From contig JBHLLG010000036.1 in NCBI GenBank assembly GCA_048885925.1, positions 1 to 26,177 of the forward strand: a stretch of 26,177 nucleotides of DNA. Reading direction: 5' to 3'. Shown piece after piece: positions 2,598-25,878 of the stretch; the first letter of the stretch is position 1, and each line of letters opens with the position of its first letter. The DNA is from Candidatus Hermodarchaeota archaeon. GTDB taxonomy: Archaea; Asgardarchaeota; Lokiarchaeia; Sigyniarchaeales; SOKP01. Under the pieces are notes generated by a model. That model had not been told where the DNA came from. It did not search any database and saw only the letters and a program-made list of their open reading frames with translations. The translations under genes and the position numbers were made by a program.

Positions 2598-3535
2598 TAA
2601 TCTCTCAACCTCCTACCTGTAATATCAATAAATACATCCTCTAATGTGTTTTTACGAACAGAAATATCTTCCATTTTTACTTTTACAACATCCATGATTT
2701 CAGAAACTCGTCTGAGTCCATCAAGAGCATTAAGAACAATTCTATGTTTTCCAACTGGTTTTCCCCATTTAACAAAATCTAGTGATTTTGCCCGCTCAAT
2801 AATCTCATCTCGTTGTTCTATCTCTTTAACCTTAAATTCTAATATATCTCCTTCTCCTAGTGTTCCTTTTAGTTCATCTGGTGTACCCTTGGTTATAATT
2901 TTCCCATAATCTATTATAACAAGTTCATCCGAAAGATCATCTGCTTCTTCCATACTATGTGTTGTTAAAATAATAGTACATTCTTTTTGTTGAAAATCTC
3001 GAATAAAATCCCATACCACCCGACGCGATTGCGGATCTAGACCTGCTGTAGGTTCATCAAAAAATAATAACTCTGGTTCATGAACCACCGCCATTAATAC
3101 ATTTATTCGCCGTTTCATACCACCTGAAAAATTCTTAACTAAAGAATTTGCCCTATCTAACAAATTCATTTTCCCTAACAATTCATCAGTTCTTTCTTTA
3201 TAATCTTTTTTTGCCATTCCATGCATTTGGGCAATTAAATGAATATTTTCTCTTGCTGTTAAACGTGGATAAAGAACGAGTTCTTGTGGACATACTCCAA
3301 TTCGTCTCTTAATCTCACGAGCATCGTTTTTGATATCAAATCCTAAAACTGTAGCATTACCATCAGTTGGATGTAAAATTGTAGATAACATTCTAATAGT
3401 TGTTGTTTTTCCTGCTCCATTAGGACCAAGAACTCCATATAATGACCCTTTTTGTATCTGTATATCTATTCCATCGACAGCGTGAATGGTACCAAAATAT
3501 TTTTTTAGATTATGAGTTTCAATTGCTAATTCCAT
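2597..3535 (-). CDS. ABC-2 exporter ATP-binding protein (DrrA-like)
   Basis: Walker A GPNGAGKTT, signature FSGGMKRR, Walker B FFDEPTAGLDP, H-loop LTTHSMEEAD, C-terminal TLEDVFIDITG. Confidence 0.95.
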   Translation of the reverse strand: MELAIETHNLKKYFGTIHAVDGIDIQIQKGSLYGVLGPNGAGKTTTIRMLSTILHPTDGNATVLGFDIKNDAREIKRRIGVCPQELVLYPRLTARENIHLIAQMHGMAKKDYKERTDELLGKMNLLDRANSLVKNFSGGMKRRINVLMAVVHEPELLFFDEPTAGLDPQSRRVVWDFIRDFQQKECTIILTTHSMEEADDLSDELVIIDYGKIITKGTPDELKGTLGEGDILEFKVKEIEQRDEIIERAKSLDFVKWGKPVGKHRIVLNALDGLRRVSEIMDVVKVKMEDISVRKNTLEDVFIDITGRRLRD

Positions 3536-3660: not shown

Positions 3661-4137
3661 TTAATTGTTAAGAAAGATGATTTTTTCTATTGCTTTTCTA
3701 ACATTTTCATCAAGAATTTTTAAAACCTTTTTATAAGTGCTATTTGAAGTATAATAAGGATCGATTATATCTAAATCGTCAGGTTCTCCGTTAAATTCTT
3801 TCAATGTAAAGGTTTTTTTATCAATATCTTTAACATTATTAAATACATTCTTGATTTCTTTCGAATGATTATACTCCATTGTAAGGATTAAATCTTGTTT
3901 TTCTAATAATTTACGATTAATTATTTTGGGTGTAAAGTCTGAATGGTTAATTCCTTTAGAATCCAAGAAAATACGAGATTCTGCTTGCATATAACCAAAA
4001 GCGTTGATAAAACCACAGGAATCAAATTGTAAATCAGCATTAAGTTTTTTAGCATAATAACGACCTAAGTATTCTGCTGCTGGAGATCTTGCTGTATTAC
4101 CTAGACATACAAAGAGAACATTCTTAATTTTACTCAC
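3661..4137 (-). CDS. Low-molecular-weight protein phosphatase (LMW-PTP family), paralog 2
   Basis: P-loop VLFVCLGNTARSP (CX5R), DS.G, DLILTME, general-acid loop DIIDPYY; GTG start. Confidence 0.9.
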   Translation of the reverse strand: MSKIKNVLFVCLGNTARSPAAEYLGRYYAKKLNADLQFDSCGFINAFGYMQAESRIFLDSKGINHSDFTPKIINRKLLEKQDLILTMEYNHSKEIKNVFNNVKDIDKKTFTLKEFNGEPDDLDIIDPYYTSNSTYKKVLKILDENVRKAIEKIIFLNN

Positions 4138-4321
4138 AGTTAATCATATATTAATAAAAGTATATTTAAAATAAAATTTATGGGAAATTATTAAATAAAA
4201 GATTGACCTAAGGAATATTACAGAAACCAATATAATCTATTCTTATGAGAAATGAATCAATAAGAAACTGGTTAATGAGGGTATTTACAAGAGATATAAA
4301 TTTACCCAAGGCTACAATAAT

Positions 4322-4825
4322 TTATTCATTTTTTTCTGATGTGTTTTTTTCAATAATTTTATTAATAACTTTCAGAACTCCATCCTCAATTCTTTTAAGA
4401 ATCTTATTATATTCTTCTTGCTCTGCATAAAAGGGATCTTGAATCTCTAAGTTTTCCTTTTCACCAGCAAATTCTAATAATAAAAAGACTTTTTTATCTA
4501 AATCTACATTTTTAAATCTTCTTTTTAACTTATTAATATGTCTTTTTTGCTCAAAAGTTAAGATTAAATCTTGCTTATTTACTAAATTCTCATCTATTCT
4601 TTTAGTTTTAAAACGACTAATATCAATTTCTTTTGTTTTTAAGTAATTGACTGTACCCTCTTGAGCAGTCTCATAATAATGATAAAGTCCAGCAGAATCA
4701 AAATTAACGCCTCTTAATTCGTTTTTATACTTTACATTTTTCAACCATTTTGCATATTCAGCTGCAAATGGCGATCGACATGTGTTGCCAGCACAAAGAA
4801 AAAGGACATTTCGTATTTTTGGCAT
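4322..4825 (-). CDS. Low-molecular-weight protein phosphatase (LMW-PTP family), paralog 1
   Basis: P-loop VLFLCAGNTCRSP, DSAG, DLILTFE, EIQDPFY. Confidence 0.92.
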   Translation of the reverse strand: MPKIRNVLFLCAGNTCRSPFAAEYAKWLKNVKYKNELRGVNFDSAGLYHYYETAQEGTVNYLKTKEIDISRFKTKRIDENLVNKQDLILTFEQKRHINKLKRRFKNVDLDKKVFLLLEFAGEKENLEIQDPFYAEQEEYNKILKRIEDGVLKVINKIIEKNTSEKNE

Positions 4826-10986: not shown

Positions 10987-12177
10987 ATGCTTGATATTAA
11001 CAATATTAGATATATTTGTGTAGTTGGAGCAGGGATAATGGGGCATGGTATTGCTCAAGTGTCTCTAATGGCTGGTTATACTGTCACTTTAATTGATTTA
11101 AAAGAAGAAATCGTAGATTATGGACTTAAAAAAATTGAAGAAGGTTTAGAAAAAATTAAAACTAAGAGCAAGCTAGGAGAAAGTATCTCCATTGATGATC
11201 TTATGAGAAAATGTAAAAAATCAATAGATCTAGTTTCTGCAGTCAAGGATGCTGATTTTGTATTTGAAGCGGTTGTAGAAAAAATGGAAATTAAAAAAAA
11301 AGTGTGTAACACAGTAATGCAATATTCACCCTCTCATTGTATTTTCGCCTCAAATACATCAACATTTAGAATAACTGAAATTGCAGACAATTCAAAAAGA
11401 CCCGAACAGGTTATTGGAATGCATTTTTTTCCACCAGTAGCTACTCAATGTTGTGTCGAAGTAATGAAAGGTGAAAAAACTCTTGATAAAGTCTTAGATA
11501 TAGGTGTAACTCTTGGTGAAAAATTACCCTGTACTAAAGGAAAAAGGCTTTCAGTACGAATTGAAAAGGAAAGTCCAGGATTTATTGCTAATAGATTATT
11601 AATTCCTTCACTTTTATATACCAATTGGATTTTTGATCAAGCGTATGAAAAGAATATTCCATGGGAACAGATTGATGCTGATGCTGGAGCAGGACAACTA
11701 ATCCCAATGGGCCCATGTCAATTAGCTGATTATCTTGGGATAGATGCTAGTTATAATAGTATGAAGAGTTATGAAAAATATATATCACCTGAATTTACTC
11801 CAGGTAAAGTGCTTACTAAACTCATAAATGAAGAAAATTTAGGAAAGAAGACAGGAAAAGGCTTTTATGATTGGACAAAAGGGACTCCAAAAATAAATTT
11901 AAGTAAAAAGGCTGGTTTATTTAATTCTGAAATTTTATTAGCAATTCAACTAAATGAAGGTTGTAAGCTTTTGGAAGAGGAAATTGTTTCTGGTTATAAA
12001 ATTATAGATGATGTTATGTTAAAAGGAACTAGTATGCCTGGCCCCTTTAGTGCTGGTAGGCATAATTTCGAAAGTTGGTCTAAATTGCTAGAAGATATCG
12101 CAGAAAAGATCGGAAAAGATTATCTTAAACCCTGTAAACTAATGAAATCTGGAGATTTCGTAAAAATGAGAAGATAA
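10987..12177 (+). CDS. 3-hydroxyacyl-CoA dehydrogenase (NAD-binding domain plus two C-terminal domains)
   Basis: VVGAGIMGHGIA, EAVVEK, FASNTS, GMHFF, PGFIANR, PMGP..LAD.LG.D, LGKKTGKGFYD, second helical repeat ending in MPGPF. Confidence 0.94.
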   Translation: MLDINNIRYICVVGAGIMGHGIAQVSLMAGYTVTLIDLKEEIVDYGLKKIEEGLEKIKTKSKLGESISIDDLMRKCKKSIDLVSAVKDADFVFEAVVEKMEIKKKVCNTVMQYSPSHCIFASNTSTFRITEIADNSKRPEQVIGMHFFPPVATQCCVEVMKGEKTLDKVLDIGVTLGEKLPCTKGKRLSVRIEKESPGFIANRLLIPSLLYTNWIFDQAYEKNIPWEQIDADAGAGQLIPMGPCQLADYLGIDASYNSMKSYEKYISPEFTPGKVLTKLINEENLGKKTGKGFYDWTKGTPKINLSKKAGLFNSEILLAIQLNEGCKLLEEEIVSGYKIIDDVMLKGTSMPGPFSAGRHNFESWSKLLEDIAEKIGKDYLKPCKLMKSGDFVKMRR

Positions 12178-12217
12178 TTTAGAATATTAAATTTTTCCAA
12201 TATTTTAAAAAAAAAGA

Positions 12218-12309
12218 TTAAAGCAATCCCATATATCTTTGAATTTGTGATTGGATAAGAAGTAGTTGGATATTGCGTGCACCACCAATAACTTCTTCTA
12301 TTTTACTTA
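12218..12309 (-). pseudogene. Detached 3'-end copy of the acyl-CoA dehydrogenase gene (direct repeat A1, att-like)
   Basis: 86/92 identical to 13219-13310; encodes SKIEEVIGGARNIQLLLIQSQIQRYMGLL*; followed on the - strand by a T9 tract (12207-12215). Confidence 0.95.
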
Positions 12310-12443
12310 GGTTAATAGAAGTATTTATTGAGTTAATCTTTATAATTTTGACACAAAGGTATAAAAATAATGAAATCATTATAGTATTTACATTGTTATA
12401 AAAAATGTAATTAAACCAAAAAATATTATAATAGAGGGTTAGA

Positions 12444-12989
12444 ATGAAAAAGCAAACAGTTACAAAAATATTAATAAGTATGGTATTTCTGATAGGTATA
12501 TCAGGAATTATGATCCCCGCTTCAGCGCAGCAAACTACTACAGTATATATCACTTTTAATGTGGAATTTACTATATATACACCTCAGGGGAATGTATTAG
12601 CTCATGTTTACACTACGGTTACCGATTTACCGTTTTTGAAAACTGGGGGTGCATATCATAGAGATAATATATGGCCTTTAATACCTTGGTTATACCCAAG
12701 CGACATCAGCGGGTCACCAGTAATTATATCTCAAGGCCAATTCCACTGTTGGCTGAGTTTTATGTCGCACTGGCCTGAACCACCCCTTCCGCTCGTTCAA
12801 AAATTTTGGGGAGATTTGACTATCATTGATGATCAAACGATGATGGGTAATTATTTCGACCTTGGATATGTAATTAGTGAAGAATTTCCAGAGGCTTTTC
12901 ATATTCCGGGTTGGATGATTCCGGTGCAAATTGGTAACACAGATATTTGGTATCTAGGATATACTGAATACATCGTTAGTTCTGTGTAA
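12444..12989 (+). CDS. Hypothetical secreted protein (cassette cargo)
   Basis: Signal peptide MKKQTVTKILISMVFLIGISGIMIPASA|QQ; GAGGGT RBS; Trp/Pro-rich mature region; several CCG/GCG/ACG/TCG codons, unlike neighbours; no family recognised. Confidence 0.8.
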   Translation: MKKQTVTKILISMVFLIGISGIMIPASAQQTTTVYITFNVEFTIYTPQGNVLAHVYTTVTDLPFLKTGGAYHRDNIWPLIPWLYPSDISGSPVIISQGQFHCWLSFMSHWPEPPLPLVQKFWGDLTIIDDQTMMGNYFDLGYVISEEFPEAFHIPGWMIPVQIGNTDIWYLGYTEYIVSSV

Positions 12990-13071
12990 AACTAACATAT
13001 GAAATTTTACCAATTAATTAAATATAAAACAGAACTCAATAGAAAATTGTTCAGGAGTTAATTTGTTTAAA

Positions 13072-13084
13072 TTTTTTTTTTTTT
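13072..13084 (+). terminator. T13 tract, probable archaeal intrinsic terminator of the cargo gene
   Basis: 13 consecutive T about 80 bp after the stop at 12989. Confidence 0.45.
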
Positions 13085-13218
13085 ATTGTATAATTTTACA
13101 ATTTTTAGAATAATCATATAATAGAGAGAAATACGAAAAATGTATTATTTTATCTTTAATATGAAATAAAAAAAAGTTTTATTTAATGATTTAAAGATTA
13201 TATATTATACTAATAAGC

Positions 13219-13310
13219 TTAGAGCATTCCTATGTACCTTTGAATTTGTGATTGGATAAGAAGTAGTTGGATATTGCGTGCACCACCAATAACTTCCTCT
13301 ATTTTACTTA
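13219..13310. repeat. Direct repeat A2 (functional ACAD 3' end)
   Basis: Partner of 12218-12309; offset 1001 bp. Confidence 0.95.
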
Positions 13311-14478
13311 CGTCACATAACTCATCTACAGGTGTATTATCTGTAACCGAGACTCCGCCCATATGTTGTTGTACTTCATAACATAATTCGTGTGTAAGTT
13401 TAGCTAAATAATATTTACCCTGAGAAGAAATCGATGCAACCCATTTTTCTGCTTCTTTAGAGGGTTTTTCGGTAAATAGAATTTTTTCATCATACACAGT
13501 TGCAGCTTGCAGAGCTAAAGCGGTTGCTGCATTAGATTTTGTTAGTAGATCTGCTAACCCATAGCCAACGCCTTGATATCTAATTACAGGCATACCAAAT
13601 TGTTTCCTTAAATTTGTATAGATTATGCCATATATTAATCCAGCCCAACAAATTCCAACACCACTGCCCATAATAGAAAGTCTTTCAGGAACTAAACCTT
13701 CAAACAATCTTTTATATCCAAGACCATCATCTGCAAGTACATAATCCTTAGGTACTAAGACATTATCTAATATAGTATGTGATATCTGGACTCTTGGAAC
13801 AGAATTAATTTTTAAACGTTCAGTTTTTACACCAAATTCACGAGCAATAAGTGCTTGAACCATAGTATCTCTAGGATTTTTTTCATCATATACACCATAA
13901 CACGCAAAATAGTCAGCTATCGCTCCATTGGTAGTATAGACTTTTTCTCCGTTAAAAATAACCCCGTCATCAGTTTTTGTGCATTTAGTCGTGAGGTTGA
14001 CAGCATCAGAGCCTCTTTCAGGTTCAGTAATACCAATACAACCAACTTTTTCTCCTGATAAAAGCTCATCCTGTACTTTTAGTGGTATATTAGATTCTCC
14101 TCCATGAGAGTAATAATGAAATGTAGGGTTACCACATAGAATTCCGGTTGCTACTCGAGATAATTCTAATTGTGGATCTAAAAGCGAAATATGTGTACCT
14201 AATAATATTTCTTTTTTCATTCCATATGGTTTAAAATCTTTCCAGGGATTAATTCGTTGGATATAACCGTGTTTTCCAAGCTCCGGAAGTAGACTATAAA
14301 CATCCTTTGATTTATCGATCTTAGGATGTAATTCTAAGCAAAATGCTTGAAGTTGGTTGCAGTATTCTTGTTCTTCATTATTTAGCATTGGAAAAATATT
14401 ATCATTAAAAATTTTGAAGACATTTTCCAATGACATCTTTTCAAGAATTTGGTCATCTATAATTTTCTCTTGAAACAT
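13219..14478 (-). CDS. Acyl-CoA dehydrogenase
   Basis: GCIGITEPERGSDA, FNGEKVYTTNG, RKQFGMPVIRYQGV, QQHMGG, IEEVIGGARNIQ. Confidence 0.94.
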   Translation of the reverse strand: MFQEKIIDDQILEKMSLENVFKIFNDNIFPMLNNEEQEYCNQLQAFCLELHPKIDKSKDVYSLLPELGKHGYIQRINPWKDFKPYGMKKEILLGTHISLLDPQLELSRVATGILCGNPTFHYYSHGGESNIPLKVQDELLSGEKVGCIGITEPERGSDAVNLTTKCTKTDDGVIFNGEKVYTTNGAIADYFACYGVYDEKNPRDTMVQALIAREFGVKTERLKINSVPRVQISHTILDNVLVPKDYVLADDGLGYKRLFEGLVPERLSIMGSGVGICWAGLIYGIIYTNLRKQFGMPVIRYQGVGYGLADLLTKSNAATALALQAATVYDEKILFTEKPSKEAEKWVASISSQGKYYLAKLTHELCYEVQQHMGGVSVTDNTPVDELCDVSKIEEVIGGARNIQLLLIQSQIQRYIGML

Positions 14479-14504
14479 TTTTTCATCAATTTAATTATTA
14501 TTGT

Positions 14505-14573
14505 TAAAAATTTTAATGACGTTATATTAATTAGTCTAAATTTTTTATTCCAATTAAATCTTTAAGATTAAAT
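14505..14573. repeat. Direct repeat B1 (69 bp, upstream/promoter region of ACAD)
   Basis: 65/69 identical, ungapped, to 18003-18071; contains AATCTT-T-AAGATT palindrome; lies 27-95 bp upstream of the ACAD ATG. Confidence 0.92.
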
Positions 14574-16105
14574 ATTGCTAAATACTAAGGAATTAATCTC
14601 AAAAGAAAATAAAATATGTTTTTAAACCAAATATGCATGAATAGAATATTTAAAAAAAGATAATTTTGAGTTGTACTACCTTAACTATTTCTACCATCTC
14701 TAATTTTTGACATTCCAGAATCTCATAATTAGGAATATTTTTCTTTAAATGATTGATAGAAACTTAACTGACATTCTTCTTCAGATAATTAAAAAGTTTT
14801 TAAATTCCCGAAATGTCATGTTAATTTGACAAAATTAGTATTTTATAGGATTCTTTATAAAGGATCGTAATAGCAATTGTTATAATTTATTATAAGATAT
14901 TATGAAACTTAATAAATATATGAAAAAGAAGCTGGAGAAAAATCATTGTTTTTATCCTAAATTTTATTCCAGTTAAAATTGTTTTTATTATTTTAATTTT
15001 AGATATTGATGTTCTGGATGGAATTATCGATCATGAATGTAGTATTAATCGATAATTAGAATATATAAAATGGGATATGTGAAAAAGTTATGAAACAAAC
15101 AAAAGAACAAGAATATAAAGTAGAATTAGAACTAGAAGAAAGAAAAGAAGCAAGCAAAATAAAAAGAATTCTCTCATGGATTATCCATAATCCGAAATTT
15201 CTTCTCATACCAGGTTATAGGCTAGAGGAATTATCTATTCGCGAATGTGAATATGAAAAAACGATAAGTAAAAGAAAGTTTATACAAAGATTAAAATCTC
15301 CATTAACGATATTAGGAATTTTAATCTTTTTTATGATTTCAACTTTCGCTATTTTCCCGGAATGGTTGTCTCAATATACATTTGAAGAAGCTAATGGTTT
15401 ATATTTTGGTGAATGGAAACCAGCATCTCTAGAACATCCCCTCGGCACCACAGATTTTGGGCGTGATATTTTAGCAAGGCTAATTTATGGGGCAAGGGGT
15501 TCTTTAACCATTGCTTTACCGTCTATTGGTTTTAGTGCTGTCGTTGGCGTAGTATTAGGGATTATTGCTGGATATTACGGAGGATCGGTCGATTCATTAA
15601 TAATGAGAATAACGGATGTCTTCCTTGCATTTCCGGGTCTGATCCTTGCGCTTGTATTTATAGCAATTTGGGGTCCAAGGATGGAATGCATAATGCTAGC
15701 TTTTGGAATTCTCGGTGTTCCTTGCTATTCACGGTTAATTCGAGGAGTAGTATTGCAAGCTCGAGAATTACCCTATATTGAAGCCGCAAGAGCATCTGGA
15801 TCCGGAAATTGGAGAATAATATTTAGACACATCTTTCCAAATACTATTCAACCAATCATTATTTCTCTTTCATTCAATAGTGGTGGAGTCATTTTAGCTT
15901 TAGCAGGTCTTGCCTTTCTGGGTTATAGTGACATCAGATTAATTGAATGGGGAAATGACTTAAATGATGCACGACTTCACTTATATGATGCTCCTTGGGC
16001 AGCATTTTGGCCAGGTTTTATGATCTTTATTACTGTACTTGGTTTTATGTTAGTTGGAGATGGATTAAGGGATGCTTTCGATCCGAGATTAAAGAATTTA
16101 TAAAA
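14574..16105 (+). repeat. Duplicated unit D1: ~516-bp non-coding leader + dppC
   Basis: Collinear with ~16421-17954 over the whole leader (e.g. AAAAGAAAATAAAAT, AGTTGTACTACCTTA, TTTGACATTCC, GTCATGTTAATTTGACA, GATATGTGAAAAAGTTATG) and the CDS. Confidence 0.93.
15090..16103 (+). CDS. dppC: Peptide/nickel ABC transporter permease DppC/OppC-like, copy 1
   Basis: HPLGTTDFGRDILARLIYGAR, EAA loop YIEAARASG, RHIFPN, GDGLRDAFDPR; ~60-aa charged N-terminal extension. Confidence 0.92.
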   Translation: MKQTKEQEYKVELELEERKEASKIKRILSWIIHNPKFLLIPGYRLEELSIRECEYEKTISKRKFIQRLKSPLTILGILIFFMISTFAIFPEWLSQYTFEEANGLYFGEWKPASLEHPLGTTDFGRDILARLIYGARGSLTIALPSIGFSAVVGVVLGIIAGYYGGSVDSLIMRITDVFLAFPGLILALVFIAIWGPRMECIMLAFGILGVPCYSRLIRGVVLQARELPYIEAARASGSGNWRIIFRHIFPNTIQPIIISLSFNSGGVILALAGLAFLGYSDIRLIEWGNDLNDARLHLYDAPWAAFWPGFMIFITVLGFMLVGDGLRDAFDPRLKNL

Positions 16106-16172
16106 TCGTTTTTCATTAGTGGAGAGTCATTTAGTCAATTTTGATAGTTTTGATAATTTAGAAGATACAGAG

Positions 16173-16201
16173 AAAATATTAAAAAATTAATTTTTAGTGG
16201 T
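16173..16201. repeat. Short relic matching the 3' tip and terminator of the ABC ATPase at 18141-18170
   Basis: AAAATATTAAAAAA-TTAATTTTTAGTGGT vs AAAATTTTAAAAAAGTTAATTTTTAGTGGT (one mismatch, one indel; 15-bp exact core = TTKN* codons). AT-rich, so moderate support. Confidence 0.55.
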
Positions 16202-16255
16202 TAAGGAAAAAGAGGAATTTTGGTTAATTAAAATATGATCTTATAGTAAATTCCT

Positions 16256-16430
16256 TTATTTGAAATATTTATCAATAAAAGCCATTACTTTATTTATTTC
16301 TTCTAAAGGAGTATCTACACTGTTAAAAGTATAGAAACTAACTTCTGGATCTGTTCTACTTAGTCTGAAATATAGAATCGAATTTGAGCTTTTTTAGTTG
16401 TTAGATATCTATCATATTATTATTATCTAA
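16256..16430 (-). pseudogene. Decayed 3'-end fragment of the phosphohexomutase gene (direct repeat C1)
   Basis: About 137/174 nt (~79%) identical to 24121-24294 plus a 1-bp insertion; reads LDNNNMIDI*QLK/SSNSILYFRLSRTDPEVSFYTFNSVDTPLEEINKVMAFIDKYFK* vs SDNNDMIDIYQLKSNDSTLYFRPSGTGPEVRFYIFGNVETHLEEIQKVMEYIGNNYK*. Not in the ORF track. Confidence 0.93.
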
Positions 16431-17954
16431 TACTAATAATTTGATCTAAAAAGAAAATAAAATGTGTCATTAAATTTAACAGATACATAGAGAATATAAA
16501 AAAAATAATTTTTAGTTGTACTACCTTAGCTATTTTTATAATCTCTCACTTTTGACATTCCATAATCTCATAAATAGGATTTTTATTCTTTATATGATTG
16601 ATAATAACTTAATTGACATTCTTATTTTGATAATTAAAAGATTTTTTAACTGTTGAATTCAAAGTCATGTTAATTTGACAGAACTAGAATTTAACAAGAT
16701 TCTTTATAAATGATAATAATAGCTATTGTTACAATTCAATAAAAGATATTATGAAACTTAAAATATATATGAAAAGGAAGCCGGAGAAAAATTATTATCT
16801 ATATCCTAAATTTTATTCAAACCAAAATGGTCTTTATTAGTATAAATTTTGGTATTGAAGTTCTGTATGCAATTATTGACTACGATTATGATATTAATTA
16901 ATAATTAAAATAGATAAAATGAGATATGTGAAAAAGTTATGAAACAAACAAAAGAACAAGAATATGAATTAGAATTAGAACTAGAAGAAAGAAAAGAACA
17001 AGGTATTATAATTAGTACGCTCTCATGGATTATCCATAATCTGAAATTTCTTTTTATACCGGGTTATAGGCTTGAAGAATTATCTATTCGGGAATTTGAA
17101 TATGAAAAAACGATAAGCAAAAGAAAGTTTATACAAAGATTAAAATCTCCATTAACCATTTTAGGTATTTTGATCGTTTTTTTTATTTCAACTTTCGCCA
17201 TTTTTCCGGAATGGCTTTCTCAATATACATTTGAAGAAGCTAATGGTGTATTTTATGGCGCATGGCAACCTGCCTCCCCAGAACATCTCCTCGGTACTAC
17301 GGATTTTGGACGCGACATTTTAGCAAGGCTTATTTATGGGGCAAGAGCGTCTTTAACCATTGCTTTACCGTCTATTGGCTTTAGTGTAATTCTTGGCGTT
17401 ATATTCGGTGTTATTTCTGGATATTACGGAGGATGGATTGATTCATTAATAATGAGAATAATGGATATCTTTCTTGCGTTCCCAGGCCTGATCCTTGCTC
17501 TTGTATTTGTTGCAATTTGGGGCCCAAGAATGGAATATATAATGTTAGCTTTTGGAGTTTTAGGTGTACCGTTTTATTCACGGCTAATTCGAGGGGTAGT
17601 CTTACAAGCGCGAGAATTGCCTTATATTGAAGCTGCAAGAACATCAGGATCAGGAAATTGGAGAATTATGTTTCGACATATCCTTCCAAATACTATACAA
17701 CCTATCATTATTTCTCTTACATTCAATATCGGTGGAGTTATTTTAGCTCTAGCAGGTCTTGCCTTTCTGGGTTATAGCGACATCAGATTAATTGAATGGG
17801 GAAATGACATAAATGATGCACGGCTCCATTTATATGATGCACCTTGGGCGGCACTTTGGCCTGGCTTTATGATCCTTATTGCTGTGCTTGGTTTCATGTT
17901 AGTTGGTGATGGATTAAGAGATGCGTTAGATCCGAGATTAAAGAATTTATAAAA
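16421..17954 (+). repeat. Duplicated unit D2: ~516-bp non-coding leader + dppC
   Basis: Second copy of 14574-16105; left edge coincides with the end of the mutase relic. Confidence 0.93.
16939..17952 (+). CDS. dppC: Peptide/nickel ABC transporter permease DppC/OppC-like, copy 2
   Basis: Same motifs and length (337 aa) as copy 1; about 46 substitutions (~86% aa identity) by manual count. Confidence 0.93.
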   Translation: MKQTKEQEYELELELEERKEQGIIISTLSWIIHNLKFLFIPGYRLEELSIREFEYEKTISKRKFIQRLKSPLTILGILIVFFISTFAIFPEWLSQYTFEEANGVFYGAWQPASPEHLLGTTDFGRDILARLIYGARASLTIALPSIGFSVILGVIFGVISGYYGGWIDSLIMRIMDIFLAFPGLILALVFVAIWGPRMEYIMLAFGVLGVPFYSRLIRGVVLQARELPYIEAARTSGSGNWRIMFRHILPNTIQPIIISLTFNIGGVILALAGLAFLGYSDIRLIEWGNDINDARLHLYDAPWAALWPGFMILIAVLGFMLVGDGLRDALDPRLKNL

Positions 17955-17973
17955 ATATTTTTTTTTATTATTT

Positions 17974-18008
17974 TTTTTATGTGTCGAAAGTTTTTCGACA
18001 CATAAAAA
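17974..18008. terminator. Perfect 16-bp inverted repeat with 3-nt loop (hairpin) between convergent genes
   Basis: TTTTTATGTGTCGAAA-GTT-TTTCGACACATAAAAA; preceded by T-tracts; overlaps the left edge of repeat B2. The repeat is certain, the terminator role is inferred. Confidence 0.6.
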
Positions 18009-18071
18009 TTTGAATGAATTTATATTAATTAGTCTAAATTATTTATTCCAATTAAATCTTTAAGATTAAAT
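18003..18071. repeat. Direct repeat B2
   Basis: Partner of 14505-14573; offset 3498 bp. Confidence 0.92.
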
Positions 18072-18155
18072 GCTGATTAACTTTGAAGATTTAATGTCTT
18101 AGGTAAACAAAATCAGGATTCATATATTATTGACAAATAAAAAATTTTAAAAAAG

Positions 18156-18920
18156 TTAATTTTTAGTGGTAACAGTTTCAATAATTTTACCGTCTCTCAT
18201 TTTTAGCATCCTTTCAGCAAGAACACCAACCATAGGATCGTGGGTTACCATTAAAATCGTTTGTTTAAGCTCTTGATTGAGTTCTCGTAATAGTTTAACA
18301 ATCTCCATACCCATTGTTGTATCAAGTTCTCCCGTTGGTTCATCAGCAATTAAGATGGAAGGTTCATTACATAATGCACGTGCAATAGCAACTCTTTGTT
18401 GCTCTCCACCCGAAAGTTCTGAAGGTAAGTAATCCTTCTTCTCTATTATGCCTACAAGGTCAAGAAATTTATTAACATTTCTTTCTATATCCTCTTTACG
18501 TTTACCAGCAAAAACCATTGGAAGTTCTGCATTTTCATAAGCTGAAAGCACAGGTACAAGGTTATAAAACTGAAAAATAAATCCAATTTCTTTTAGTCTT
18601 AAATTTGTACGTTGCGCATCATCCATATGAGCTATATTTGTTCTATTTATGTACACTGCACCACTTGTAGGATTATCGAGAGCTCCTATCATGTTTAAAA
18701 GGGTAGTTTTTCCAGAACCTGATGGTCCCATAACTGAAACAAATTCACCTTTCTTAATATCTATACTAACTCCATTTAGGGCTCTAATTTCAATCCCTTC
18801 CGTAATGTTATAAATTTTGGTCAAATCAAAAGTCTGGATCATAGCATCAGGATCTATTTCATAGCTTTTTATTTCCTGAGCTACTGAACCGTGTTTTTTT
18901 CCTTTTTTAAGTATTTTCAT
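18156..18920 (-). CDS. ABC transporter ATP-binding protein (LolD/MacB/FtsE family), subunit 2
   Basis: GPSGSGKTT, IGFIFQFYNL, LSGGEQQRVAIARAL, ADEPTGELD, VTHD; GAGGT RBS 7 nt before ATG. Confidence 0.95.
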   Translation of the reverse strand: MKILKKGKKHGSVAQEIKSYEIDPDAMIQTFDLTKIYNITEGIEIRALNGVSIDIKKGEFVSVMGPSGSGKTTLLNMIGALDNPTSGAVYINRTNIAHMDDAQRTNLRLKEIGFIFQFYNLVPVLSAYENAELPMVFAGKRKEDIERNVNKFLDLVGIIEKKDYLPSELSGGEQQRVAIARALCNEPSILIADEPTGELDTTMGMEIVKLLRELNQELKQTILMVTHDPMVGVLAERMLKMRDGKIIETVTTKN

Positions 18921-24120: not shown

Positions 24121-24294
24121 TTATTTATAATTATTACCTATATATTCCATTACTTTTTGTATCTCTTCTAGATGAGTTTCTACGTTCCCAAAAATATAGA
24201 ATCTAACTTCTGGACCTGTTCCACTTGGTCTGAAATAAAGAGTTGAATCATTACTTTTTAATTGATAGATATCTATCATATCATTATTATCTGA
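24121..24294. repeat. Direct repeat C2 (functional mutase 3' end)
   Basis: Partner of 16256-16430; offset about 7864 bp. Confidence 0.9.
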
Positions 24295-25878
24295 TAAAGC
24301 ATGAACATCATAATTTTTTCCTCCAATTTTAACTCTTTTTCGATTGTTTAGTTCAAAGTTTTTCATAATATTAATTTTCTCTTCATCACTAGCAGAAATC
24401 GTAAGATTAATTCCTTTTATTGACCAATCAATTGATTTAGAGATGACAAAACCCCGACATATGAGTTCTGTAATTAAAATTAAGGCAGGAACAGGATATT
24501 TATCAGCAATAATGGCAAAATCAGTTTTGAAATTGTATTCCCCTGTCTGTTTATTCTTTATTATATCCAATAAATTGAGGGTATGACCTCCACTTTCTTC
24601 CCAATAAACCATTAAAAAAGATTCTTTCTCTATTTTTTGATTTTCCATTAATTTTATTATTTCTGCTTTAAGAGGATCTGGTGTATTTATCTTTATTAGA
24701 TTTCTATTCTCATCTTCAAAATAAAGAATTGCAGTATCAATTTTGGATTGATCAACTTCTATTCCCAGAAGGAAATACATAATTACTCCAAGGTGCTTAT
24801 ATCCAACTCCTGTTAAAATATTTATGAAACTCTGGTCATCGCTACGTAGGTCTGTTGGGATTGTTCTAACATTAACAATCCTTTTTCCATATTCCTTAGC
24901 TAAAATATTATGCATAGCAGAATAAATTTCATTAGGTATATAAGTGATATATTTTCCGTTTTGCTTAATATATAAGGCAATTCGATCTCTGTCTGCATCA
25001 AGTAATATTGCTACGTCTGAATTAACTTGATTCATAACACTTTGTAATTTATTTTCTCTAATTATTTTTATAGGATTCGGAGGATTGACTTCTTCCTCAA
25101 TTAGAGTTATTTTAGCACCGTATTCTTTAAAAAGATTAACAATTCCCCTTGCTTTTCCTAAATATGGCCAAATAACAATGTTTTTGCCTTTTATACTCTT
25201 GATCTCTAATACTCGTGATAAGAGTCTTTGTACATATTCATTATTTTTTTTCTCAGCATCAATAAAAATTGGATTGACAGATTTTAAATAAATTTCTCTA
25301 CATTCCAATGCTTTTTTAGATATTTCTTTAGATAAATTTCCCGATAAAGGTATTGGGAAATCAAAATAAACTTTAATTCCATTCCAAGATAAATCATTAT
25401 GACTAGCTGTCAAAATAATAACCAGATTTATATCATCATACAAAGCTACTGAAGCAGCTCCATAAGGAGAAGATATTCTTGATTTACCAGCTTCATCAAT
25501 TTGATAAAAAATGTTGAATCCATCATAAGCAAAAATCTCAGAACAATATTTTAATAAAATATCATTAGTTGGTCGGTCATCAGTAACTATTAAAATTTTG
25601 AGATTATGATTATTTTTCATTTCTTTAAATTGTTGGCTAATAGCTTTAAATACTCTAAAGAATAGAAAGAGCTTTTTCTTTGTTAATAAATATTGTTCTA
25701 CTTGTTCCTCTTTTTTAACATCAAAGATTTGAATCCTCAATCCTGAAGTTGGAGCAACAATTGGATCAATTATATCTTTTTCTTCATCTGTTAGTTCTGT
25801 TAACTTTAAAAGTTGACTTCCATCTTCTAATTGTTCTACTTCAATATCTTCGATATCAAATTCAATCAGATGATCCAC
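24121..25878 (-). CDS. Alpha-D-phosphohexomutase (phosphoglucomutase/phosphomannomutase family), divergent
   Basis: Phospho-Ser loop LTASHN..WNGIK, metal loop LDADRDR, GVGYK, WEESGG, phosphate-binding RPSGTGPEVRFY; acidic N-terminal extension; GTG start uncertain. Confidence 0.9.
   Translation of the reverse strand: MDHLIEFDIEDIEVEQLEDGSQLLKLTELTDEEKDIIDPIVAPTSGLRIQIFDVKKEEQVEQYLLTKKKLFLFFRVFKAISQQFKEMKNNHNLKILIVTDDRPTNDILLKYCSEIFAYDGFNIFYQIDEAGKSRISSPYGAASVALYDDINLVIILTASHNDLSWNGIKVYFDFPIPLSGNLSKEISKKALECREIYLKSVNPIFIDAEKKNNEYVQRLLSRVLEIKSIKGKNIVIWPYLGKARGIVNLFKEYGAKITLIEEEVNPPNPIKIIRENKLQSVMNQVNSDVAILLDADRDRIALYIKQNGKYITYIPNEIYSAMHNILAKEYGKRIVNVRTIPTDLRSDDQSFINILTGVGYKHLGVIMYFLLGIEVDQSKIDTAILYFEDENRNLIKINTPDPLKAEIIKLMENQKIEKESFLMVYWEESGGHTLNLLDIIKNKQTGEYNFKTDFAIIADKYPVPALILITELICRGFVISKSIDWSIKGINLTISASDEEKINIMKNFELNNRKRVKIGGKNYDVHALSDNNDMIDIYQLKSNDSTLYFRPSGTGPEVRFYIFGNVETHLEEIQKVMEYIGNNYK

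Follow-up and report, generated by a model that had tools for sequence, protein, structure and literature searches.

Displacement of an acyl-CoA dehydrogenase 3' end in a Lokiarchaeon: probable scar of homology-anchored gene capture without an integrase

We have analysed a 26,177-nt stretch of DNA (the window; contig JBHLLG010000036.1, here C36) from a Lokiarchaeon, in which the 3' end of an acyl-CoA dehydrogenase gene (ACAD) is present twice, on the two sides of a single accessory gene that we call orfX. This structure is probably what remains of a homology-anchored capture that needed no integrase, a 3'-end displacement of the homology-facilitated illegitimate recombination (HFIR) type or of the Campbell type, in a hypervariable slot of the chromosome. 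On this reading it arose by host-driven recombination with a related strain and is not a self-mobile element. What the data show directly is the architecture of the locus, the native context of the orphaned gene end, the divergence of the 2 tails under purifying selection, the lack of a recombinase, the variability of the slot, the recurrence of similar scars and a partial loss of the insert in sister strains; we infer the donor, the direction in which DNA entered and the pathway, for which we propose host RadA-type recombination with end joining. The genome bin that holds C36 (G000) comprises 3.9 Mb in 181 contigs and is 95% complete with 4.4% contamination. Coordinates are window positions unless another contig is named, and congeners are the 19 that carry an ACAD orthologue (83-93% aa identity).

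The intact ACAD gene (13219..14478, minus strand, 419 aa) carries the Pfam domains Acyl-CoA_dh_M and Acyl-CoA_dh_1, and its functional 3' end (13219..13310, minus strand) is continuous with the gene body in contigs of three other assemblies (X1, X5 and X7, described below). The second copy, an orphan of 30 codons plus a stop with its frame intact, lies at 12218..12309 on the same strand. A repeat finder located the direct repeat at 12211-12312 and 13212-13313 (102 nt, 91% identity, spacing 1001), pairwise alignment agreed, self-BLAST of the tail gave E = 5e-33, and the whole 3.9-Mb genome holds only these 2 copies. The 6 mismatches between 12218-12309 and 13219-13310, at positions 12221, 12226, 12230, 12233, 12236 and 12296, comprise 4 synonymous changes and the replacements M/I and L/M, and the translated ends read ...QRYIGML* in the functional copy and ...QRYMGLL* in the orphan. 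Five of the 6 fall within the last 7 codons (P ~0.0025, a binomial estimate for at least 5 of 6 in 21 of 95 positions); the tail thus consists of 5 mismatches in 21 bp, a 59-bp identical core and the mismatch at 12296, and the homology stops at 12309. The orphan retains its stop (12218-12220), 40 bp from the stop (12175-12177) of the convergent 3-hydroxyacyl-CoA dehydrogenase gene HADH (10987..12177, plus strand, 396 aa; Pfam 3HCDH_N and 3HCDH, and NCBIfam), and the native 40-bp spacer between them (12178..12217) includes an A9 run at 12207-12215, which is T9 on the ACAD strand. An earlier, sequence-only reading of this DNA had reported the last 92 bp of ACAD twice in direct orientation, the 6 mismatches with their 4 synonymous and 2 conservative effects and their clustering near the gene end, and a distal copy with its own stop and T9 tract facing HADH; our repeat, alignment, BLAST and translation results agree with it on all of these. 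The duplication stood as described, and the roles of the copies required correction: the working ACAD end is 13219-13310, part of the intact gene 13219..14478, and the orphan is 12218-12309. We rejected the possibility that the orphan is part of a real gene, as the ORF that contains it (12218..12553, 111 aa) is low-complexity and rich in I, N, F and Y, belongs to no family and overlaps orfX in antisense.

The interval between the tail copies contains orfX as its single gene (12444..12989, plus strand). To its left is a non-coding part (12310..12443), the last ~35 bp of which belong to the conserved orfX upstream (promoter) region, and to its right another (12990..13218), which consists of the orfX terminator region, with a stem and a T13 run near 13072-13084, and the spacer to the new ACAD stop, with a T8 run on the ACAD strand. 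The 181-aa product has an N-terminal signal/anchor helix and an all-beta domain, an arrangement that the AlphaFold model (pLDDT 65, pTM 0.58) predicts as a hydrophobic helix followed by an all-beta body; no Pfam or NCBIfam family matched it, and Foldseek returned no PDB match at E <= 0.001. A set of 5.8 billion proteins yielded 5 homologues of orfX, 58-85% conserved among the 5. One other genome of the 150 in the order carries the gene (G078, from another genus), as does 1 metagenome contig, L082, in which orfX has non-coding flanks only. L082 and G078 have in common a block of 857 bp at 90% identity, with sharp edges, which covers promoter, gene and terminator; the homology of the window to both begins at 12409 and, for L082, extends to 13078. 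The non-coding parts of the insert had no real match in 134 genomes of the family except G078, no small RNA was found by Rfam at E <= 1 in 12100-13400, and a search of IMG/VR viral contigs found no orfX and no ACAD core. A pair of putative terminal inverted repeats flanking orfX (12319-12347 and 13020-13048, 29 nt, 72% complementary) was rejected, since it stands at the level of the 57 chance pairs listed.

The surroundings of the 2 tails differ in what they indicate about origin. Window positions 12100-12309 match, in the same order, the HADH-ACAD junction that is uninterrupted in G005, G008, G014 and G019 (72-75% over 231-238 bp), and because of this colinearity we take the distal copy to be the resident tail and the proximal copy the newcomer: the distal tail appears to be the original gene end, and the proximal, functional end appears to be a xenologous replacement that arrived with the insert. 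The orphan's end, RYMGLL*, resembles that of the relatives, and the derived changes sit in the functional copy. Also, the 2 tails are more alike than either is to any of the congeners, and the 59-bp stretch common to both is absent from 19 of 19; the donor therefore was presumably a close relative.

We compared duplicated tails with the corresponding gene ends in 8 events, several of which are described below, by the ratio of nonsynonymous to synonymous differences per site (pN/pS). For the 2 ACAD tails the ratio was 0.22 (Sd 4.0, Nd 3.0, 31 codons), from only 7 differences, with no stop and no indel. Values of 0.23, 0.26, 0.21 and 0.26 were obtained for the events C1a, C1b, C17 and C103, respectively, and 0.18 for the G078 event at a pS of 0.73 (47 differences in 201 bp, no gap or stop), which places 6 of the 8 between 0.18 and 0.26; the orphans of a PGM-like gene (0.60) and of HADH in G019 (0.45) are decayed. 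Because the ratios are low and the frames intact, the replacement tails seem to have evolved as working gene ends in other genomes, and the low values make decay of an orphan after duplication in place unlikely. The sequence-only reading had proposed that both ACAD copies evolved as functional ends and that one came from another genome, and the ratio of 0.22, the intact orphan frame and the clustered mismatches speak for that proposal. It had also held that tandem ACAD paralogs in relatives would overturn it; a second ACAD end lies downstream in 0 of the 19. We likewise rejected a deletion remnant of a tandem paralog as the source of the orphan, as the G017 paralog (70% identity) is on the upstream side of the ortholog, and the orphan matches its own gene end at 91% versus 77-78% for the G017 ends.

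The insert lies in a slot between TauE and ACAD whose content we compared among the 19 congeners. TauE abuts ACAD in G007, G021, G016 and G004 (4/19). The slot holds only a homologue of o10417 in G002 (1/19), one small ORF in G015 and G003 (2/19), HADH without an insert in G005 and G008 (2/19), only the last 53 HADH codons in G014 (1/19), HADH with an insert in G019 (1/19), NosD-type genes in G006, G009 and G023 (3/19) and a B12-radical SAM gene in G012 (1/19); contig ends cut it in G001, G020, G011 and G017 (4/19). Cargo in these relatives includes NosD/beta-helix and beta-lactamase-fold proteins, oxidoreductases, a B12-radical SAM enzyme and unknowns, and orfX is in the slot of 0 of the 19. 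HADH adjoins ACAD in only 3 of the 19 (G005, G008 and, with an insert, G019), besides the remnant in G014, and is an accessory member of this variable slot. The G014 remnant, between the o10417 homologue and ACAD (L030 4877-5035), is a case of gene loss that left a 3' end behind.

We compared the structure with contigs from 4 sequencing runs, among them X1, assembled independently at k=31 and perhaps derived from the source sample, and X5 and X7, which come from two other studies; the comparison covers contigs only, from which rare variants are dropped. Contigs of X1 span 12266-12706 and 12893-13267 with 0 mismatches and cross both unique junctions. The contig ends of the bin overlap by 77 bp, which indicates an assembly k of 77, and because this is larger than the 59-bp identical core, the assembler could separate the tail copies. 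In X5 and X7, one contig each carries HADH together with the ACAD side, through a joint of 12171 to 13056; the X7 contig extends to 13311, and the X5 contig covers 13056-13267 with one difference. Because these contigs join HADH to the proximal tail, that tail is chromosomal in near-identical strains. Mis-assembly of two haplotypes, named in the sequence-only reading as an outcome that would defeat it, is contradicted both by the junctions crossed in X1 and by the chromosomal position of the proximal tail in X5 and X7.

The X5 and X7 strains lack an 884-bp segment (12172..13055) that comprises the orphan and orfX, and their HADH ends ...KMRS* versus ...KMRR* here. They keep 13056-13218; the piece 13056-13078 shares homology with the orfX 3' regions in L082 and G078, and because this piece was retained their form is a deletion derivative. 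We read the loss as a probable illegitimate deletion between AGATAATTT and AGTTAATTT and not as recombination at the 92-bp repeats. Neither an excision joint (+1001) nor a circle joint was seen in the contigs of the 4 runs; the loss that was seen is the 884-bp one. A 131-nt contig of X5 matches 12135-12266 with 8 differences and has no insert sequence, a hint that some relative may retain the ancestral junction; an uninterrupted HADH-ACAD junction is present in other species. The T13 run after orfX (13072-13084) is 2 nt shorter in the X5 and X7 strains.

Searches for integrase and transposase families were negative for all 27 ORFs from the TauE-ACAD slot of 16 relatives, for the 4 ORFs at the G078 locus (31 with the slot set) and for the 20 ORFs at 6 other G000 scars, and the window contains no integrase. 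The G000 genome has no serine recombinase; its tyrosine recombinases are one intact protein, above the archaeal XerA cut-off and encoded beside orc1/cdc6, and one broken fragment. These family searches of window and genome confirm the sequence-only description of an insert that has a single gene and lacks a recombinase. The 8-bp inverted repeat CTTCTATT-N11-AATAGAAG, which that description placed across the junction (12295-12321), does exist there. As a recombination site it was rejected, since repeats of this type cover 1.9% of window positions and 3.4% of AT-rich positions (a background of 2-3.4%) and 7 of 9 other junctions lack a comparable one, the remaining 2 having AT-only 7-mers. A TAAG at the 5' edge of duplicated segments was also rejected; it is near 3 of 4 edges, was noticed post hoc and is absent in C1b, G019 and G078. 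No junction motif common to the events was found, and the duplicated segments range from 89 to 326 bp and extend from 0 to ~173 bp past the stop.

Comparison with the defining features of known element classes gave a similar picture. As in integrative elements, direct repeats are present, one of them over the 3' end of the target gene (12218-12309, 13219-13310); a recombinase in or beside the element is lacking, orfX being the sole gene and the slot of 16 relatives being free of integrases. We found no co-occurring integrase element with the same att site, as would be expected of a cis-mobilizable element (CIME) or satellite, in a survey that covered plasmids and viruses outside the bin incompletely. 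The XerA protein scores below integron-integrase cut-offs, which speaks against an integron cassette, though no search was aimed at attC folding. For a transposon or insertion sequence there is no transposase, the flanking inverted repeat is the 29-nt, 72% one at chance level, and the 92-bp duplication is non-identical. What the locus does present are three features of 3'-end displacement, namely an orphan in direct orientation downstream, a preserved ancestral neighbourhood and a xenologous replacement end.

Similar scars were found elsewhere. For a census of orphans in G000, with crude gene calls (longest ORFs), we collected BLAST pairs that combine a copy inside an ORF of 150 aa or more with a second copy that touches no ORF of that size. 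There were 82 such pairs, 17 over gene 3' ends (10 on the same contig), 2 over 5' ends and 63 internal, many of the internal ones being weak paralog matches or contig edges. The other gene-3'-end duplications that the sequence-only reading had suggested scanning for exist, and the common junction motif does not appear. At six of the G000 scars the cargo consists of MBL-fold, zinc-ribbon, Ras-family GTPase, TPR and ArsR-type proteins and unknowns, with no recombinase. At C10:28727-30842 the displaced sequence is the end region of a radical-SAM gene (76% over 238 bp), and between this copy and the radical-SAM gene itself there is a gene for a Ras-family small GTPase (185 aa); a eukaryote-signature paralog may have been gained in this way.

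Two more orphans are located in the window, upstream of ACAD. One, at 14505..14708 (minus strand), derives from the 3' end and downstream sequence of an ABC ATPase gene (18156..18920; 75% over 204 bp), and the other, at 16256..16432 (minus strand), is the decayed 3' end, with 2 stops, of the PGM-like gene 24121..25878 (78.5% over 177 bp). The ABC ATPase is directly upstream of ACAD in 5 relatives (G002, G023, G016, G004 and G012), whose intact ATPase end occupies the place of the orphan 14505..14708, and PGM is so placed in 12, and because of this placement the orphans mark former junctions. In the region 14479-18204 these orphans flank a pair of permease units (14581-16113 and 16429-17962) that are 84.6% identical and are each headed by a stretch like the ABC ATPase tail, and a third permease copy on contig C8 is 90% identical to unit 2 and 86.6% to unit 1. 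The region as a whole looks like stacked displacement events upstream of ACAD.

G019 presents the mirror event: here it is HADH whose tail (142 bp, copies 86.6% identical) is found on both sides of an insert of 2455 bp. The HADH orphan there keeps its native junction to ACAD and has a 1-bp deletion (frameshift), and both copies are followed by the same 16 bp after the stop. The copies lie on L024 at 466-603 and 2921-3061 (oriented coordinates), and the insert encodes an ORF of 439 aa without a family; at 1686-1762 and 1863-1939 it also has two identical copies of a 77-bp sequence, possibly an artefact, as 77 is a frequently used assembly k-mer length. In G078, orfX itself lies between a P-type ATPase gene and its displaced 203-bp tail, beside tRNA-Leu, and the ATPase tail copies are 77% identical. 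That orphan (L045 7190-9095) is pristine and encodes a complete 4-Cys zinc-ribbon tail; we rejected it as a real gene, as there is a stop 24 codons upstream and no start. No crossover position in the G078 ATPase gene was fixed by sliding identity to G053 or by the site pattern. G053 (L057) has its own decayed 104-bp ATPase orphan with other content and without orfX, and in most congeners of G078 a tRNA is found ~40-400 bp from the ATPase stop. The tRNA-Leu(CAG)/P-type ATPase junction is a second insertion slot. Beside the ATPase gene of G058 (L073), a second copy of the last 71 nt of tRNA-Leu occurs at a distance of 244 bp (770-855 and 1014-1084), which may be a classic tRNA-tail scar.

We picture the events at ACAD as follows. 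DNA of a related Lokiarchaeon, with its own ACAD 3' part, downstream spacer and orfX, would have entered the cell and recombined with the resident ACAD through homology. The far end would then have been joined illegitimately 92 bp inside the resident gene (HFIR with a linear fragment) or, alternatively, the fragment would have been circularised and a single crossover would have occurred within the tail. By either course ACAD would end in the imported tail 13219-13310, with orfX next to it and the resident tail 12218-12309 stranded beside HADH. The sequence-only reading had named homology-anchored capture as one of two routes, and it is the route we favour.

Several observations weigh against such a capture. 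The arrangement expected of a donor, orfX beside ACAD without HADH, is present in 0 of the 19 congeners, and only one other genome of the 150 has orfX at all. With a 59-bp identical core beside 5 mismatches in 21 bp, the pattern is less even than a simple divergent donor would leave, and it would also fit an att-like core or later gene conversion. Orphans over 3' ends outnumber those over 5' ends by 17 to 2, though one-sided recombination prefers neither, and because it has no built-in 3' preference, selection against orphan promoters must be invoked. The 77% identity in G078 is low for homologous recombination, and the same rare cargo behind two different displaced tails hints at some cargo mobility. 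Finally, 800 kb of the closed congener G006 showed no local scar where ~2 would be expected from the G000 density, a comparison of small numbers; the 4 orphan matches in that stretch are one over a 3' end (inverted, 271 kb away), two over 5' ends and one internal.

Some of the same observations would be at home with a site-specific cassette that lacks its own integrase (a CIME or satellite), in which an attP carrying the ACAD tail recombined with a chromosomal attB by a recombinase acting in trans. A gene whose 3' end is regenerated while a displaced copy remains is the classic mark of an integrase, and the identical core between diverged flanks, the 17 to 2 excess of orphans over 3' ends in G000, the presence of orfX at two different gene tails in two genera and the 8-bp inverted repeat across the junction all point in this direction. 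We nevertheless regard such a cassette as unlikely, since neither the insert, the slot of 16 relatives nor the 6 other scars contain an integrase, the genome offers XerA and a broken fragment only and no serine recombinase, and orfX and the ACAD core are not in IMG/VR viral contigs. The duplicated segments, at 89-326 bp and with a variable overhang past the stop, have no common motif, and every event would require its own att site; no excision or circle joint was present in the contigs of the 4 runs, and the loss observed was illegitimate. The other route of the sequence-only reading, a minimal cassette mobilised in trans by a site-specific recombinase, is thus not supported. A related idea, that Lokiarchaeia possess a dedicated route, using a host or unrecognised enzyme, for inserting single-gene cassettes at gene 3' ends with a replacement tail from other species, is in our judgement decidedly doubtful; in its favour are the 17:2 excess, the same cargo at two tails in two genera and tails only 77% identical. 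If it were true, orfX and even Ras-type GTPase paralogs would hop between slots as an integrase-less gene-cassette system.

Two further explanations would do without import of a functional end or without any event at all. Duplication in place, by a long target-site duplication or by a template switch of the microhomology-mediated break-induced replication (MMBIR) type that captured orfX DNA, followed by orphan decay, would account for 2 tails closer to each other than to any congener, for the same 16 bp after the stop in both G019 HADH copies and for the decay of some orphans (the G019 frameshift; PGM with 2 stops and a pN/pS of 0.60). Against it stand the ratios of 0.18-0.26 in 6 of the 8 events, with pS up to 0.73 and frames intact: because an orphan would escape selection, such low values indicate that most divergence arose under selection on both copies. 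Also, the derived ACAD changes are in the functional copy, and 5 of the 6 mismatches are clustered; we consider this explanation very improbable. Still less credible is an assembly artefact, in which a single contig was built from two strain haplotypes or took in a small circle. In its favour, the sequence comes from a metagenome bin with 4.4% contamination, X1 contains several related strains (36 contigs at least 99% alike, 25 at 95-99% and 30 at 90-95%), and closed G006 is without such local scars in 800 kb. Yet the independent k=31 assembly crosses both junctions with 0 mismatches, the proximal tail is chromosomal in X5 and X7, the 59-bp core is shorter than the 77-bp assembly k-mer, and the same architecture is present in the independent bins G019, G078 and G053.

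Two other features of the window may be recorded. The segment 19769-23941 encodes a 1390-aa MacB/FtsX-type permease and two ABC ATPases, an operon that is absent between PGM and ACAD in 12 of the 19 congeners, and at 3661-4825 there are two adjacent LMWPc phosphatase paralogs of 158 aa and 167 aa on the minus strand.

With homology-anchored capture as the preferred reading, the ACAD locus illustrates stepwise gain and loss of single accessory genes in an Asgard archaeon without mobile-element machinery. A conserved gene serves as the homology anchor, the tail it had before stays behind as a dated scar, and illegitimate deletion afterwards shortens the insert. Scars of this kind would reveal where genes have recently passed between related species, and which slots receive them. 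Should the 3'-end bias hold in more genomes, it would point to a main route by which the lineage closest to eukaryotes gains genes. Our literature search, which did not extend to supplementary files, found no description of such scars in Asgard archaea.

HFIR is said to have been described in naturally transformable bacteria by Prudhomme in 2002, by Meier & Wackernagel in 2003 and by de Vries & Wackernagel in 2002. We know of no DNA uptake or enzymes for HFIR in Lokiarchaeia. The ACAD scar resembles the bacterial process in having one homologous anchor and one illegitimate joint, with foreign DNA trapped beside the anchor; HFIR has been demonstrated experimentally in bacteria only, whereas here it is deduced from sequence alone. 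Integrase islands, and the CIMEs that are their integrase-less derivatives, occupy the 3' ends of tRNA and protein genes. As in these, the target gene at our locus is regenerated by the incoming copy, a displaced partial copy lies at the far end and empty sites exist in relatives; unlike these, there is no integrase, no conserved att core, no constant segment length and no precise excision in the contigs. The integrase-bearing Asgard elements described so far (PMC11529989) use an 11-bp att site and look different from the ACAD scar. With flexible genomic islands the slot between conserved TauE and ACAD has in common that almost every species carries different accessory genes in it, but double crossovers in both flanks of an island leave no orphan tails, and the tails here show one-sided events.

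The closest parallel we can draw is with the Rhs, contact-dependent inhibition (CDI) and type VI secretion system (T6SS) effector-immunity loci, whose C-terminal displacement arrays are ascribed to HFIR by Kirchberger et al. (2017, PMC5361080; Jackson et al. 2009 cited there). There, too, incoming DNA with its anchor in the conserved portion of a gene supplies a new 3' end and cargo, the old end is orphaned downstream, no integrase takes part, and orphans can stack, as the ATPase and PGM tails do beside ACAD. In contrast to those loci, a housekeeping end of the same function, not a new toxin tip, replaced the ACAD tail, an unrelated accessory gene stands in place of an immunity gene as the cargo, and the host is an Asgard archaeon. 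The type of event is already known, and the ACAD locus, taken alone, is an ordinary example of it.

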